Of a stretch of DNA of 51,779 nt, positions 21,238 through 35,372 are shown piece by piece. The stretch is from Promethearchaeota archaeon (GTDB lineage Archaea; Asgardarchaeota; Thorarchaeia; Thorarchaeales; Thorarchaeaceae). Both the position numbers and the translations under genes were made by a program. The number at the start of each line of letters is the position of its first letter. The stretch's first letter is position 1. The notes under the pieces were generated by a model. That model was not told the DNA's origin. It saw only the letters and a list, made by a program, of their open reading frames with translations, and searched no databases. The stretch spans positions 1 through 51,779 of the forward strand of contig JBHLPF010000027.1 in NCBI GenBank assembly GCA_048939765.1, written 5' to 3'.

Positions 21238-21508
21238 GAGACTCAATTGTCCCTATTCGGGTTTCAAGCACATCTACCTCAACTACAATGGCGTCGATTG
21301 CATTGCCGATATCCTCAATGGCATTGAAGTGGTCACGAATACTCAGTCCTTCTAACCGCCTAGCATCTGCATCTATAAAGGATAGAGATTCTTCGACGCT
21401 GCGTAGGCGTGCCTCAATTTCCTCAATTATGCTCAGCGTTTCTTCAACCCGACCGATTGCAGGAGGGAGTTTCGGACTTTCTGGCACAGGATTCACATCC
21501 AACTTCAA
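21218..21508 (-). CDS. Small coiled-coil protein
   Basis: Heptad pattern; 4-nt overlap with the upstream 21505..22746 gene. Confidence 0.65.
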   Translation of the reverse strand: MKLDVNPVPESPKLPPAIGRVEETLSIIEEIEARLRSVEESLSFIDADARRLEGLSIRDHFNAIEDIGNAIDAIVVEVDVLETRIGTIESLKKHRK

Positions 21509-22746
21509 TCAATAAGCTGAGAGGCACGTTCCTCGATATTTCCTAGTCTTTCAGATAGCTCTTCAAGTCTATCAAGCAAATGTCCAAGCTTGGTGCGCAG
21601 CATCCCCACAGCTGCCCCTTCATCTCCTCCAAAATCACCTGTCATCATAGCTGAGTTCAGTCGTTCTCCAAGTAGACTGGATTGGTTCTCGATGACTTCC
21701 AATCTCTCGATGATTTCTTCAACTGGAAACTTCTCCATCCGCTCTCTTAGCTCATCAACTAGTCTGGTGAGATTCTGAGCTGCTCGTTTCTCTTCATCGC
21801 TTATTGTCGACTTCACTGGCTCTGCAAGGGAGAAGGACTTCTTCACTCCTTCTAATATGCCTCCAGGTTTGCTGACCACCACTTCTCGAGTTCTAATGGG
21901 CGGATGAATTCTATCACCCCTTTCGAACCAAGCAGGCACTAGAAACTTGCGTGTGATATCCTCAAAATCTCTATCCAATAGGATGGCGAATGTAGCTAAT
22001 TCACGTGGATTATCCCATATGGCTAGCTCTACACTGTCTTCCTTTCTAAGAATCGCCGCAGCCACTCCTAGATTCAAATCCTCAAATATCGGCAGGTCAA
22101 TGAGCCAACGGCTGAATAGAAGCGCAAAGGCTGGGATCTGTCTTAGTTTGCCACATCGGAGAGCAATTGAGTATTCCTCCTCCGGCTGTTCAATTGCCTG
22201 TTTTATCCAGATTGATGTGTTGAATTTCCTTCCAGGGATAGAGAGGCTAAGAACTTCAGCAGCCTCCCATTCTATTGCGTCTATTCTTAACTGTTCAATA
22301 TAGTCCAAGTGGGGTTCTTCAAATTCAGGAGAGAGTTTCTCTCCCAAGATATACTTCAGAACAAGGCGAATGATTTCATGCGGGGAATAGTCACGCAACC
22401 AGATTGTTGTGACTAGCTTGACTCGCCCTCCTGCATGTTCATCATCGGATAGCACAACGACGAGCTTCGATGAGTCCAGCCCCGGCTCTCCAAGAATGAA
22501 GATGCCTGTCCTTCCAGGAGCGTCCATTGCGCGATCAGCCATCAACTGTATAGCTTCGTGCGTCGGTTCAATGTAGTTCTCTTGATTGAATTTCGTGGTT
22601 GAAGACTCTTGGAGTCCCTTCACAAGCAGCCCTTCCTCAACCCAACCCGATTTGAGTCCCTTTTCTGGAAGTTGCGCTATTAGATAGCCAAGTATCTCGC
22701 TACTACTATACATTGCTTGAAGTCTGGTTATTGCCTCGTCGTTCAC
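21505..22746 (-). CDS. Hypothetical protein, alpha/beta N-terminal region + C-terminal coiled coil
   Basis: 413-aa ORF with 4-nt overlaps on both sides. Confidence 0.75.
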   Translation of the reverse strand: MNDEAITRLQAMYSSSEILGYLIAQLPEKGLKSGWVEEGLLVKGLQESSTTKFNQENYIEPTHEAIQLMADRAMDAPGRTGIFILGEPGLDSSKLVVVLSDDEHAGGRVKLVTTIWLRDYSPHEIIRLVLKYILGEKLSPEFEEPHLDYIEQLRIDAIEWEAAEVLSLSIPGRKFNTSIWIKQAIEQPEEEYSIALRCGKLRQIPAFALLFSRWLIDLPIFEDLNLGVAAAILRKEDSVELAIWDNPRELATFAILLDRDFEDITRKFLVPAWFERGDRIHPPIRTREVVVSKPGGILEGVKKSFSLAEPVKSTISDEEKRAAQNLTRLVDELRERMEKFPVEEIIERLEVIENQSSLLGERLNSAMMTGDFGGDEGAAVGMLRTKLGHLLDRLEELSERLGNIEERASQLID

Positions 22747-23870
22747 CTGCCAACAACCTCGTTCTCAATCCTATTGAATATTCCTTCAATCGCTTGTGTA
22801 ATATCTTTGAATTGGTCTATATGAATCAGACTACCATTCCCTGCATTTGCAATGGCCTGCATTAAATCCCTGTCAGATTTAACTCCCAGTGCCACGCTTG
22901 TAATCAAAATGTCTTCGCACGCACCAATTTTCCTTGCCATATTGACTGGATTGCGACCTGAAGTAAATGCGCCCCCGGATATGAGTATCACATTGGTGGA
23001 TAGTCCGTTCCGCGAATTCAGATGTCGTGCTACTTCAATAGACAATTCCAAGGCACTTCCAGGATTAGAAGGTTCATCGTTGCGATCATTATTCTGTTCT
23101 GAGAGCCAATTGAGGATTGGTTGACATGATTCTGAACTCAATTGAAGTGCGCTACCTTCACTGGTTGTCAATTGTTCGGATGACTCACCAAACGCAATAG
23201 CTGAAACCAAATTGACATCGCACTCCCTAATAGAGGACAGTATGGCTTCAATTGCACGCAGACCAGCTTTGAAACGCGTGATTCCTCCAGTGCCATTTTC
23301 CATCTCTACATCCTGAATGCTAGACGATGCTCCAACGTCTATCGCGAAGCATACATTGAAACAGGATGGTAATTCAGCCTGAGCGGTCAGATTGACTTTC
23401 AATATCTGATTCCACATGATTCTAGATGCCTGAAATTGCTCGGCAATAGGATTCAGGCGTTCCACGACAAATCCTACGCTGAGTTCAGCAATATCAATTC
23501 GCTGTCCCATCCGTACAATCAGACCATCAAGATAATCCTTGAGATCTTCGATTCGTTTGGATAAGGCATCCACAGCTTTCGTATTCACTAATCCTTCAAG
23601 GGAATAAATTAGGAGCGACAGCTCATTGGAGTCAGGAATCGTTTCAGGAACAGCTGTCAAAGAGACTTCGCTGTGCTCTTCACATCCCAACTCATCGAAT
23701 ATTCGGGAATCCATTACAATAGAGCCAGAAGCTACTTTCTCCGAAGTGCGTATGTCAGAAAAGACAATGACACCCCCATAACTCAATTGGGCTGTGGCAA
23801 TCGTGGTCACAGAAGGATGCACAAATGAGATTCCTCTCTGCTTTCGTCCTTTGATAGCTTCGAGTTCCAA
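22743..23870 (-). CDS. Cdc48N-like + VWA protein (partly degenerate MIDAS)
   Basis: GSIVMDSRIFDELG...DYLDGLIVRMGQ parallels 15558..16838; FNVCFAIDVGAS, SNPGSAL, ILISGG, SVALG. Confidence 0.75.
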   Translation of the reverse strand: MELEAIKGRKQRGISFVHPSVTTIATAQLSYGGVIVFSDIRTSEKVASGSIVMDSRIFDELGCEEHSEVSLTAVPETIPDSNELSLLIYSLEGLVNTKAVDALSKRIEDLKDYLDGLIVRMGQRIDIAELSVGFVVERLNPIAEQFQASRIMWNQILKVNLTAQAELPSCFNVCFAIDVGASSSIQDVEMENGTGGITRFKAGLRAIEAILSSIRECDVNLVSAIAFGESSEQLTTSEGSALQLSSESCQPILNWLSEQNNDRNDEPSNPGSALELSIEVARHLNSRNGLSTNVILISGGAFTSGRNPVNMARKIGACEDILITSVALGVKSDRDLMQAIANAGNGSLIHIDQFKDITQAIEGIFNRIENEVVGR

Positions 23871-23884
23871 GACCGGCCACGCAC

Positions 23885-25027
23885 CTAATACAGACGTGTA
23901 TTGTATATCGCAGTTGCGAGGGATTTGGAACCATACATGACCTCAACACGAATGCTTGCCTTGCCTTTTTCATCTGTCATTGGTGTGAGCTGCGACTCAA
24001 TATGTCGTTCAGAGTTGGGGCCAATCTCATGCTTCTCATTTGTGACCTCGGACACCCCTTCCGGCGTGATCAATGTGACTACAAGACGGATTTCTACGAC
24101 AGCATGACTTGGATTCTTCACTCTCAAGTCGTACATGAATGGTCTTCCGGCGATCAGGGCATCAGGGACTTCACCAAGCTCCACGCTCATTCCCATCTTA
24201 GATGCCGCAAGAGGCCGACCCTTTGGCCACCTCGCAATCTTACTGAGCTCAAGCAATCGTGATAGCGAGGTCTTTACATCCCTAAGATCCAGTCCAAGAT
24301 GAACTGCAGCCTCACCGATGTCAAATGTCCCATCATTGGCTTCATAGTAGGCAAGGACTTTTCGATCAGACTCAATAAGGTCACTCACTCCCTCAAGAAT
24401 TTGGAGAATAGCTTCAGGTAATTCGTGTGCTTCCTGAAGAGAATAGTATCGTCCTCCGTCTACCGAATCTGCGATGCTTTTGAAAGACTCTCTCACCAGA
24501 GGATTACAGCCACAGACGAAAATGAAGACGGTCTCCCCATAACGGCTCTTGAGAGATTGAGCTTCTCTCTGAGGGTCATGGCCTTTGGGGCATCCATCTG
24601 GAAAGTAATCATCGCTAAGGTTGTTGTACTTTCTGCCATGTGGTGGTGCATCACCGACAAGTAGCAACGCCTTGTAGGCATGTTCATCCCACGATAGCTT
24701 TGTCCTGGCATCAAACAATCCATCAGCAACAGCTTCAGGCGTATCTCCGCCCTGAGAGGGATTAAGATTTGATATCTCCCTATGTACATTCTTGATACGA
24801 TCCGAGAAATCGAAAATCCGTGTCACGTAGGAGTGATCCTGAGGCGGATGATCACGATACGAAACTATCGCGAATCGTATACTCAAGTCCTTGGTTCGTG
24901 TAGTGATTCTGTCGACTATCTCGAACAGACTGTCCTTCACCGCACGTATGTCATCCTTCATTGAACCGGTCGTATCGACCACAAAAGCAACGTCAAGTTT
25001 GGCTCGCTGCAGCCCAATCCACTCCAT
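23885..25027 (-). CDS. VWA domain + winged helix + Ig-like domain protein
   Basis: DTTGSM, SYRDHPPQD, GGDTPEAV, GDAPPHG; then FDIGEAAVHLGLDLRDVKTSLSRL (HTH) and a C-terminal beta sandwich. Confidence 0.85.
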   Translation of the reverse strand: MEWIGLQRAKLDVAFVVDTTGSMKDDIRAVKDSLFEIVDRITTRTKDLSIRFAIVSYRDHPPQDHSYVTRIFDFSDRIKNVHREISNLNPSQGGDTPEAVADGLFDARTKLSWDEHAYKALLLVGDAPPHGRKYNNLSDDYFPDGCPKGHDPQREAQSLKSRYGETVFIFVCGCNPLVRESFKSIADSVDGGRYYSLQEAHELPEAILQILEGVSDLIESDRKVLAYYEANDGTFDIGEAAVHLGLDLRDVKTSLSRLLELSKIARWPKGRPLAASKMGMSVELGEVPDALIAGRPFMYDLRVKNPSHAVVEIRLVVTLITPEGVSEVTNEKHEIGPNSERHIESQLTPMTDEKGKASIRVEVMYGSKSLATAIYNTRLY

Positions 25028-25508: not shown

Positions 25509-26063
25509 CTATAGACTCTGCTGAAGGTTCCGTAGAAGTAGCTCATTCTCATCAGGTTCTACCACTGTAGGATCTACGACTATGCCGGATTCATGGGCCT
25601 CAATAACTACATCAATTCCAGATTGACTAACTCTCTTTATTCCTGCATGCGAAAGAGCTCTCACTCGCAGTTGGGTGGTGTCAAACTCAGTCCTATCAGC
25701 GGCCTCGACCGCCTTGACATCTCTACGCAGCTTTGTCTTGGCTATTCGGAGCTGTTCCTTCAATTGAACCAGCTGGAGCTGTAGATCAATTCGCTCACGG
25801 TCTGCCTCCTCAAACTTCGCAACGACCTCATCATACTGGGCCTTCGAAACGAGATTGCGGCTTTGATCAATCCAAGAAATGGTTGTTCCATCAAATCGCC
25901 GTCTTGTTGATACTTGTCCTAGAGCTTTTAGAACAGCTATAACATCATATATTCGCCGTTTGGGAGTATCGAGTTGCTCAGCTAATATATCGCTCCTAAT
26001 CCCTTCCTCCCCACATTCCTGTAGTATTCTAAGAGCAGTTTTTGCCAAATCCACAAGCTTCAA
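25509..26063 (-). CDS. E2F/DP-family winged-helix transcription factor-like protein (DBD + coiled coil + beta-rich C-terminus)
   Basis: LRILQECGEEGIRSDILAEQLDTPKRRIYDVIAVLKALG...ISWI matches the E2F/DP RRxYD signature and the downstream IxW. Confidence 0.8.
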   Translation of the reverse strand: MKLVDLAKTALRILQECGEEGIRSDILAEQLDTPKRRIYDVIAVLKALGQVSTRRRFDGTTISWIDQSRNLVSKAQYDEVVAKFEEADRERIDLQLQLVQLKEQLRIAKTKLRRDVKAVEAADRTEFDTTQLRVRALSHAGIKRVSQSGIDVVIEAHESGIVVDPTVVEPDENELLLRNLQQSL

Positions 26064-26133
26064 AGTCGCACCCCACTGACAAGCCGGCGAGAGTCTCCAC
26101 AGAGCACTCTTCCACTATAGAAACCATTGACTC

Positions 26134-26141
26134 TATTTAAA
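26134..26141 (-). promoter_or_regulatory. Archaeal TATA box (TTTAAATA) for the E2F/DP-like gene
   Basis: Consensus TTTAWATA on the minus strand, ~70 nt upstream of the TTG start. Confidence 0.5.
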
Positions 26142-26156
26142 GGTAGGTGTTATATC

Positions 26157-26224
26157 TCGATTTTCCGAACCTTTCAACTGATAACCATAATTATGATTAT
26201 TGGACCAATCTTTCGAAAAATCGA
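26157..26224. promoter_or_regulatory. Concentric compound palindrome (outer 13-bp arms + inner 20-bp palindrome)
   Basis: TCGATTTTCCGAA (26157-69) and TTCGAAAAATCGA (26212-24) match 12/13. The inner ATAACCATAATTATGATTAT (26181-200) has 9/10 pairs. Both are centred at 26190.5. Confidence 0.65.
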
Positions 26225-33780: not shown

Positions 33781-33966
33781 CGTACTCTCTCCATTGGCTT
33801 CTAGACAACACTAGTACGGTTCTGTTCGCTTCCCAACAAATAAGTGTATTCTGCTCCATAACGAGTTAATGAGAACAATACGTGTGCAATACACCAAAAA
33901 CACGCTCTACGCATACACAAAGACAACCTCTATATTTGGCGCGTGTGACCTTCAGTTGGTGGTCCT

Positions 33967-34574: not shown

Positions 34575-35372
34575 TTAGCCAATATAGCGGTCACTGGGCC
34601 GTTCTCCTTCCTCTTCAGCTGTTCCACGTTGGGAGATCTCATTCTTGGCCCATTCAATGAAATCGATCACCTTGGTGACATCGTCTTCCAGAATGTCAAA
34701 AGAGGCTTTGATATTGAGGAAAGAGCTAATCTTCTCAAGTACAGTTCTTGCTGCACGATAGTCCATCTTAATCATACCAAGGGTTTCCCCGAGAAGACAA
34801 GCTCCCTTCATGTCATACATCGAAGCAGCCCACGCAGGAATAAACCCATTCGCTCCATTCACAACGCCCTCTTCAGTTGCCACTGTGCCTCCAACAGTAG
34901 AGATCTCTCCAAGTAATTCAGACGAGCTTGCAGAAATGAAGACACGTGGCGGCATTGGATATGACTCGAAGAATTCTTGGTAGCTGGTTTCATAGGCAGC
35001 TAGTGCGTAGACCTCCTTTATTCCAAGACCAGTGAATTCCTGTACTACAAAATCAGCATACTCGAATACGCCGCGCCCTGATGCTGGCTGGAAGTCAGCT
35101 GATAGCAGAATGAGGTCATGGGGCTCGTCAGGGGCTGCACGATAGAGCATTATTGAACTCTTGGGGAAGTTGGCGATGCCATCTTTCACAAAGACACGTG
35201 GCGGAAAGTCATCAGAAAAGAAATCCATAACCGGCTGAGCATCAAGAACAGATGAGAGGGTGTCGACTGCAATGCGTCCCACGTTTGCTATGCCTGGAAG
35301 TCCCAAGATTGCTACGGGACTCTTGAGTGAACTTGCGTCAAGGTCAATGAATCGCCTCGTGTACATATTCAT
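34575..35372 (-). CDS. PAC2 family proteasome assembly chaperone
   Basis: GLPGIANVGRIA, DDFPP, ADFQP, GANG, GACLLGET, DYRAA. Confidence 0.9.
   Translation of the reverse strand: MNMYTRRFIDLDASSLKSPVAILGLPGIANVGRIAVDTLSSVLDAQPVMDFFSDDFPPRVFVKDGIANFPKSSIMLYRAAPDEPHDLILLSADFQPASGRGVFEYADFVVQEFTGLGIKEVYALAAYETSYQEFFESYPMPPRVFISASSSELLGEISTVGGTVATEEGVVNGANGFIPAWAASMYDMKGACLLGETLGMIKMDYRAARTVLEKISSFLNIKASFDILEDDVTKVIDFIEWAKNEISQRGTAEEEGERPSDRYIG

Follow-up and report, generated by a model that had tools for sequence, protein, structure and literature searches.

The stretch of DNA analysed here (the window; 51,779 nucleotides, nt) is contig 16 of a Thorarchaeota genome bin (3.37 Mb, 88.5% complete) and carries a minus-strand gene for a protein of the E2F/DP family (Table 1). 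In eukaryotes, E2F/DP drives entry into S phase. The translated open reading frame (ORF) matches the peptide quoted in an initial annotation of this DNA, in which the product was described as an E2F/DP-like transcription factor with 'full eukaryote-like architecture' and as a homodimeric ancestor of E2F and DP that predates their duplication. We propose, with a probability of roughly 0.6, that the protein is a self-pairing, sequence-specific regulator of the E2F type that would read sites with a GCGC core, and that the region between the genes for thymidylate synthase (thyA) and anaerobic ribonucleotide reductase (nrdD) is a candidate target.

A review on the cell cycle in archaea mentions E2F homologues in Asgard genomes, and sequences of Asgard E2F/DP homologues have been listed under PF02319 and arCOG02749 (Eme et al. 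2023, Nature 618:992, PMC10307638, Suppl. 4.1.5 and ESP tables). Two Sifarchaeia WORA1 sequences in that ESP table match, as judged by eye, the translations of two independently retrieved loci (L015 and L016), which match a profile of the Thorarchaeota E2F-like family at E-values of 1e-40 and 4e-26. The published homologues also share with the protein studied here the RRxYD winged helix, the small size and a patchy, Asgard-wide spread. The Thorarchaeota gene is an ordinary member of the published family. The family itself is already known; new here are the documentation of a conserved six-heptad coil and strand module, and the candidate site between thyA and nrdD. The published accounts treat the Asgard homologues only as a DNA-binding domain on its own, with no function assigned to it. 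The conserved coil and strand module could make these proteins dimers, contrary to that description, and a canonical E2F site between two DNA-precursor genes bears on whether part of the job of E2F predates eukaryotes.

An E2F-type winged helix

Residues 6–65 of the protein match Pfam family PF02319 (E2F_TDP) at 34.4 bits (cut-off 25.7; E = 1.8e-8), and all members of a set of 20 diverse Asgard relatives score above the same cut-off. A profile built from 24 Thorarchaeota homologues retrieved 54 proteins from 1.84 billion representative proteins, and the matches outside Asgard archaea were eukaryotic E2Fs carrying both E2F_TDP and E2F_CC-MB. When a profile of 148 Asgard homologues was compared with all sequences in the PDB, only E2F8 (E = 1.3e-11), E2F4 (1.2e-7) and DP2 (9e-3) were found, and no other winged-helix family was matched. 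Comparison with 115 eukaryotic E2Fs by hhalign yielded a probability of 98% and an E-value of 3e-13, and the predicted winged-helix fold superposes on the DNA-binding domain of E2F4.

Within this domain, the RRIYD segment corresponds to the RRxYD base-contact motif of E2F/DP and aligns with RRIYD of E2F4 and E2F8 and with RRVYD of DP2. Base contact by this motif is seen in the E2F4-DP2-DNA structure 1CF7. All 148 Asgard homologues have R36, R37 and D40, and conservation of Y39 reaches at least 90%. Because the base-reading RRxYD motif is invariant, sequence-specific DNA binding can be argued. Conservation of the base-contact residues in Asgard E2F homologues has been reported previously (Eme et al. 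2023, PMC10307638, Suppl. 4.1.5). These findings firmly support homology between the DNA-binding domain and the E2F/DP winged helix, and the E2F-like domain named by the initial annotation is upheld. The replacement by Ala of the Asn in 'TNVL' of E2F, likewise part of that annotation, is seen in the profile alignment as IAVL in the Thorarchaeota protein. Homologues of family f19 at L002:470-970:- and L012:765-1265:+ carry RRIYDIVNPL or RRVYDIVNPL, in which the Asn is retained as in eukaryotic E2F/DP (TNVL, LNVL); Thorarchaeota have Ala there.

Alternatively, the protein could belong with ordinary winged-helix regulators of archaea such as TrmB, MarR or ArsR and owe its likeness to E2F to chance or convergence. 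Fold searches rank the winged helices of Z-alpha, MarR, ArsR and IclR proteins level with or above that of E2F4, and weak TrmB matches to Pfam are present in 17 of the 20 family members. However, winged-helix families can be separated by sequence profiles and not by fold searches, and the profiles point to E2F through the PF02319 scores, the invariant RRxYD motif and the restriction of matches to E2F8, E2F4 and DP2 in the PDB and to eukaryotic E2Fs in the large protein set. The best profile matches are not to TrmB-like proteins, which the initial annotation had named as the contrary outcome; TrmB (PF01978) scores 13.4 bits on the 184-residue protein, below its cut-off of 25.6. TrmB regulators do have a similar layout, in which a winged helix is followed by a coiled-coil arm and a C-terminal sensor domain (strand-rich in both), and they form dimers. 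In contrast to them, the archaeal protein has no Regulator_TrmB domain and bears the RRxYD signature of E2F/DP. We consider the generic explanation highly improbable, and the profile results bring it close to refuted.

More than 120 full-length Thorarchaeota homologues were found (~183 residues, 56–95% identity), the nearest of which are annotated as Candidatus Thorarchaeota and are 90–95% identical. The PF02319 domain is present in 124 of 301 Asgard genomes, mostly as one copy, and its distribution is patchy: 68 of the 76 genomes in the family of the source organism carry it, and it was found in 0/68 and 0/28 genomes of two other families.

Coiled coil, strand module and ancestry

Two AlphaFold2 models of the protein were prepared, one with a shallow alignment and one with 148 diverse homologues (mean predicted local distance difference test score, pLDDT, of 85). 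In the latter model, a winged helix (residues 1–65) is followed by a helix (74–115), six strands (119–164) and a further helix (172–183), and the order of DNA-binding domain, heptad helix and beta-rich tail given in the initial annotation is reproduced.

The long helix is a predicted coiled coil whose core is formed by a positions 77, 84, 91, 98, 105, 112 and 119 and d positions 80, 87, 94, 101, 108 and 115. Across the family, these core positions are 64% hydrophobic, versus 15% at the remaining positions. The profile alignment with eukaryotic E2F is gapless where the winged helix passes into the coil (residues 3–109 versus E2F 6–110; hhalign), and hmmsearch aligns query positions 5–107 on several eukaryotic E2Fs. 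The coil by itself matches the E2F coil with an E-value of 4.5e-4 and a probability of 33%, a result that counts for little given the general likeness among coils, and Pfam leucine-zipper families give weak matches in the same region. The conserved heptad core and the collinear alignment make it well supported that the protein has a coil in the E2F position that could dimerise, contrary to the published description and as the initial annotation had stated. This coil is probably homologous in position to that of E2F.

One PF02319 gene is present in the genome bin, and searches of the same genome gave no match to PF08781 (DP) or E2F_CC-MB at E ≤ 10 and none to RB_A (the Rb A-box) at E ≤ 1. Given the single copy and the absence of a DP-like partner from the genome, self-pairing is the most likely arrangement if the protein is a dimer. 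The chain stops at residue 184, 20 residues past the strand module, and has no transactivation or Rb-binding tail, in agreement with the initial annotation. Because this tail is absent and no Rb-like gene was found, any control exerted on the factor itself must differ from that in eukaryotes.

Other Asgard genomes (loci L002–L021) encode the family in more than one layout. The long layout combines winged helix, coil and strand module, as in the 184-residue protein. In the short layout (~115–127 residues), the winged helix is joined directly to the strand module and the coil is missing, and in a third layout (~150 residues) there is a KKRRIYDVLDVL helix together with a C-terminal domain of unrelated type. 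Two of these proteins occur side by side in some genomes: long and short in G058, long and third in G044 and G061, and two short forms in each of G148 and G235. These two-form genomes could point to heterodimers. A search for longer relatives returned three eukaryotic E2F7/8-like proteins and no fused archaeal forms. A feature search of the ESM Atlas gave no usable match.

The strand module, with strands at residues 119–121, 124–126, 133–136, 142–147, 152–156 and 161–164 in the deep-alignment model, is kept across Asgard lineages. Residues 125–166 fall below a pLDDT of 50 when the alignment is shallow. In the C-terminal helix, L176, L180 and Q181 are at least 90% conserved in Thorarchaeota, and in the remaining Asgard lineages the helix varies or is missing. 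The marked-box fold of E2F/DP is an intertwined beta-sandwich made by two chains, and the initial annotation had equated the beta-rich tail with a marked box. This identification found no sequence support. PF16421 (E2F_CC-MB) matched nothing in the protein, 20 relatives or the genome at E ≤ 10, and PF08781 (DP) matched nothing in the 20 relatives or the genome at the same threshold. Comparison of residues 120–184 with 124 eukaryotic marked boxes by hhalign revealed no similarity (E 0.25–0.3), and a C-terminal profile found nothing better than E 0.3 in the PDB, with no E2F1/4/5 or DP1 chain among its matches. The Foldseek and VIA-align lists for both models contain no E2F/DP CC-MB chain, but they are filled by the winged helix (residues 1–71) and inform on that part almost exclusively. 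When the sequences are read by eye, the last four strands show a two-hairpin pattern like that of the E2F marked box, a resemblance and not a test. Common ancestry of the strand module and the E2F/DP marked box is unproven, and of the 'full eukaryote-like architecture' the coil can be retained and the marked box cannot yet be claimed.

These comparisons bear on the proposal that the whole protein is homologous, part by part, to E2F/DP and descends from an undivided, homodimeric ancestor that existed before the duplication. The parts occur in the same order in the AlphaFold2 model, the profile alignment is collinear from winged helix into coil, and the gene is single-copy. The two-hairpin resemblance, and the need for a deep alignment before the strand module is modelled with confidence, also fit this proposal. 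However, none of the sequence searches described above links the strand module to the marked box, and the match of the coil alone is weak. Moreover, the coil-less Asgard relatives and those with a different C-terminus suggest domain shuffling. We therefore regard common descent of the whole protein as possible but doubtful. A homodimeric pre-duplication ancestor would fit both the presence of one copy per genome and the account of Eme et al. (2023).

An extended form of this proposal holds that the protein represents an undivided E2F/DP ancestor, comprising winged helix, coil and marked-box unit, and that it binds TTTSGCGCS as a homodimer and controls the genes for thymidylate synthase and ribonucleotide reductase. 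This we consider unlikely. If it were true, the link of E2F to DNA-precursor supply would predate eukaryotes, the E2F/DP duplication and Rb.

Known E2F and DP proteins differ from the archaeal protein in several respects. E2F1–6 (PF02319 plus PF16421; structures 1CF7, 2AZE and 5TUU) share with it an RRxYD winged helix followed directly by a leucine-zipper-like coil, and Thorarchaeota also keep a TTTSGCGCS site at thymidylate synthase and ribonucleotide reductase genes. In contrast to E2F1–6, which are ~350–450 residues long and have Asn in TNVL, the archaeal protein has 184 residues and Ala at this position, and it is without a detectable marked-box sequence, a DP partner, or a transactivation and pocket-protein tail; no Rb was found in its genome. 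DP1 and DP2 (PF02319 plus PF08781) also have a winged helix with RRxYD. DP2 comes third, and last, among the PDB matches (E = 9e-3), but this match is weaker than that to E2F and there is no PF08781 match; the profile comparisons of coil and marked box covered E2F sequences. The atypical E2F7 and E2F8 (4YO2), the latter being the best match of solved structure, bind the same site without DP by means of two winged helices and are thus a functional analogue of a homodimer. Whereas E2F7/8 have two winged helices per chain and no coiled coil, the archaeal protein has one per chain and would pair through its coil.

A conserved site between thyA and nrdD

In eukaryotes, the classical targets of E2F include the genes for thymidylate synthase and ribonucleotide reductase. 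We compared 29 nrdD loci from Thorarchaeota. A site of E2F type lies in a divergent intergenic region 540–700 nt 5' of nrdD. On one side, ~90–110 nt away, is the conserved start of a gene of the thymidylate synthase family (PF00303), and ~130–160 nt away on the other side begins a small operon with a glutaredoxin-like gene and, as its last gene, nrdD. The strict consensus TTTSSCGC is present in 16 of the 29 loci, a number that rises to 23 when an SGCGCS core is also accepted; these counts come from related genomes and are not independent. All matches fall inside one 160-nt intergenic segment, where their density is 3.66 per kb compared with 0.119 per kb in the remainder of these loci (~31-fold).

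Most of the sites are CGCGCCAAA or CGCGCGAAA, which read as TTTSGCGCG on the opposite strand. One locus has the perfect palindrome TTTCGCGCGAAA. The flanking sequences vary between genera, and in one genus the orientation is flipped. The varied flanks and the flipped orientation suggest that the constraint acts on the DNA itself and not on a coding sequence. Further conserved boxes, GGTAnnnTTCACTAGA and GGACCTTAAGT, occur in the thyA-nrdD region, 420–700 nt 5' of nrdD (L072–L099), and GGACCTTAAGT is probably the TATA box of the nrdD operon.

If the protein is a self-pairing regulator of the E2F type, its winged helix would read the GCGC core through RRxYD, and two chains would pair through the long helix, possibly also through the strand module. 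The paired winged helices could then bind a near-palindromic site of the TTTSGCGCSAAA type. The best candidate target would be the control region shared by the thymidylate-synthase-family gene and the glutaredoxin-like/nrdD operon, at which binding is presumed from the conserved site.

Several observations weigh against this reading. The published account (Eme et al. 2023, PMC10307638) has the homology ending at the DNA-binding domain and the proteins lacking a dimerisation domain. The kinship of the 29 genomes means that the support from the locus counts is overstated, and the copy in the source genome itself is imperfect (ATTGGCGCCAC, contig C49, about 2693–2698). The link between the site and the protein is presumptive, and another factor may bind it. 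No site was found 5' of class II ribonucleotide reductase in 13 loci, several of which have uncertain start codons, nor is there a GCGC-core site 5' of the E2F-like gene in four genera, which gives no sign of autoregulation. In 10 further Asgard genomes with a member of the family, the regions upstream of thymidylate synthase contain only 1 weak match. Throughout the source genome, the strict consensus yields 92 upstream matches, and the 20 annotated genes among them show no functional theme; they include Cdc48, a DnaG-like primase, ABCE1, a histone deacetylase and transporters.

In this comparison, the thymidylate synthase site is specific to Thorarchaeota. In a family without the factor, the regions 5' of thymidylate synthase in 20 genomes showed no site, although their GC content of 14–29% makes them a poor control.

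A further alternative is that the protein combines winged helix and coil for a non-transcriptional role, for example as an accessory factor in chromosome organisation or recombination of the ScpB or Hop2-Mnd1 kind. Both of these appear among the weak structural matches, no clear regulon emerges from the genome, and the conserved neighbouring genes are unrelated to replication. Yet the ScpB and Hop2-Mnd1 matches are no better than those to many other winged helices, the invariant RRxYD motif argues for sequence-specific binding, and a consensus site is conserved at one locus. We judge a non-transcriptional role to be improbable.

A second set of matches was rejected. TTTSSCGC occurs 90–170 nt 5' of the MCM gene in 15 of 30 Thorarchaeota genomes (L042–L071) and also in that of the source organism (G000, contig C37, about 62230–62240). 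This site is a coding artefact: it falls within the final codons of the gene upstream of MCM, where TGG CGC encodes Trp-Arg. At the same position, other genera have TGGCGT or TGGAGA (Trp-Arg) or TGGAAG (Trp-Lys), and the TTAAATA promoter box of MCM lies downstream of the rejected site. The MCM case warns that matches to the E2F consensus can be coding by-products.

Two 9-mers of the TTTGGCGCG type are present in the window, a number within chance expectation, since 18 of 100 shuffled versions contain at least as many. A perfect TTTGGCGCG is located at 33935–33943 on the plus strand, 32 nt 5' of an unannotated ORF for 137 amino acids, between two divergent genes that have no Pfam match.

Gene start and neighbourhood

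The coordinates of the gene and of its predicted parts are listed in Table 1. Homologues share an MKLV N-terminus that aligns at the same position as the TTG start. The putative ribosome-binding site extends to GGGGTGC, which is kept in all four aligned upstream regions from Thorarchaeota. Boxes reading TTAAATA or TAAAATA align with TTTAAATA in three other Thorarchaeota genera, and a box of the same type is found 5' of MCM, so that TTTAAATA may act as the promoter. The TTG start is considered sound because of the shared MKLV start, the GGGGTG box and the TTTAAATA box.

Table 1. Positions in the window of the E2F/DP-family gene, its upstream signals and the predicted parts of its product.
Feature	Position	Strand	Remarks
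E2F/DP-family gene, stop codon included	25509..26063	-	184 amino acids, TTG start; from ORF list and translation
Winged-helix DNA-binding domain, E2F/DP type, residues 1–65	25869..26063	-	
RRIYD, the RRxYD base-contact motif of E2F/DP, residues 36–40	25944..25958	-	
Amphipathic helix, six heptads, predicted coiled coil, residues 74–119	25707..25844	-	AlphaFold2 helix 74–115, pLDDT up to 97
Conserved beta-rich module, six predicted strands, residues 119–165	25569..25709	-	AlphaFold2, block pLDDT 87–91
C-terminal helix, residues 172–183	25515..25550	-	Both AlphaFold2 models
GGGGTG, candidate ribosome-binding site	26069..26074	-	Shine-Dalgarno-like, 6–11 nt 5' of TTG start
TTTAAATA, candidate TATA box of the E2F-like gene	26134..26141	-	71–78 nt 5' of start codon

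Farther upstream, a TTCGGAAAATCG box lies at 26158–26169 on the minus strand, ~95–106 nt 5' of the start of the E2F-like gene, and four genera of Thorarchaeota keep it in the form TTCGGAAAATCG or GAGAAAATCGG. This box may be the binding site of another regulator of the gene.

The gene neighbourhood is conserved in Thorarchaeota and includes P-loop GTPase-like, cyclophilin-like and von Willebrand A (VWA) genes; it is unrelated to replication and uninformative. Three adjacent genes at 21505–25027 on the minus strand encode proteins of 375–413 residues, at least one of which has a von Willebrand A domain, and their place beside the E2F-like gene and the cyclophilin-like gene is conserved between genera of Thorarchaeota. 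Elsewhere in the window, at 34575–35372 on the minus strand, is a gene for a protein of the PAC2 family, the proteasome assembly chaperone family (E = 2.2e-27).
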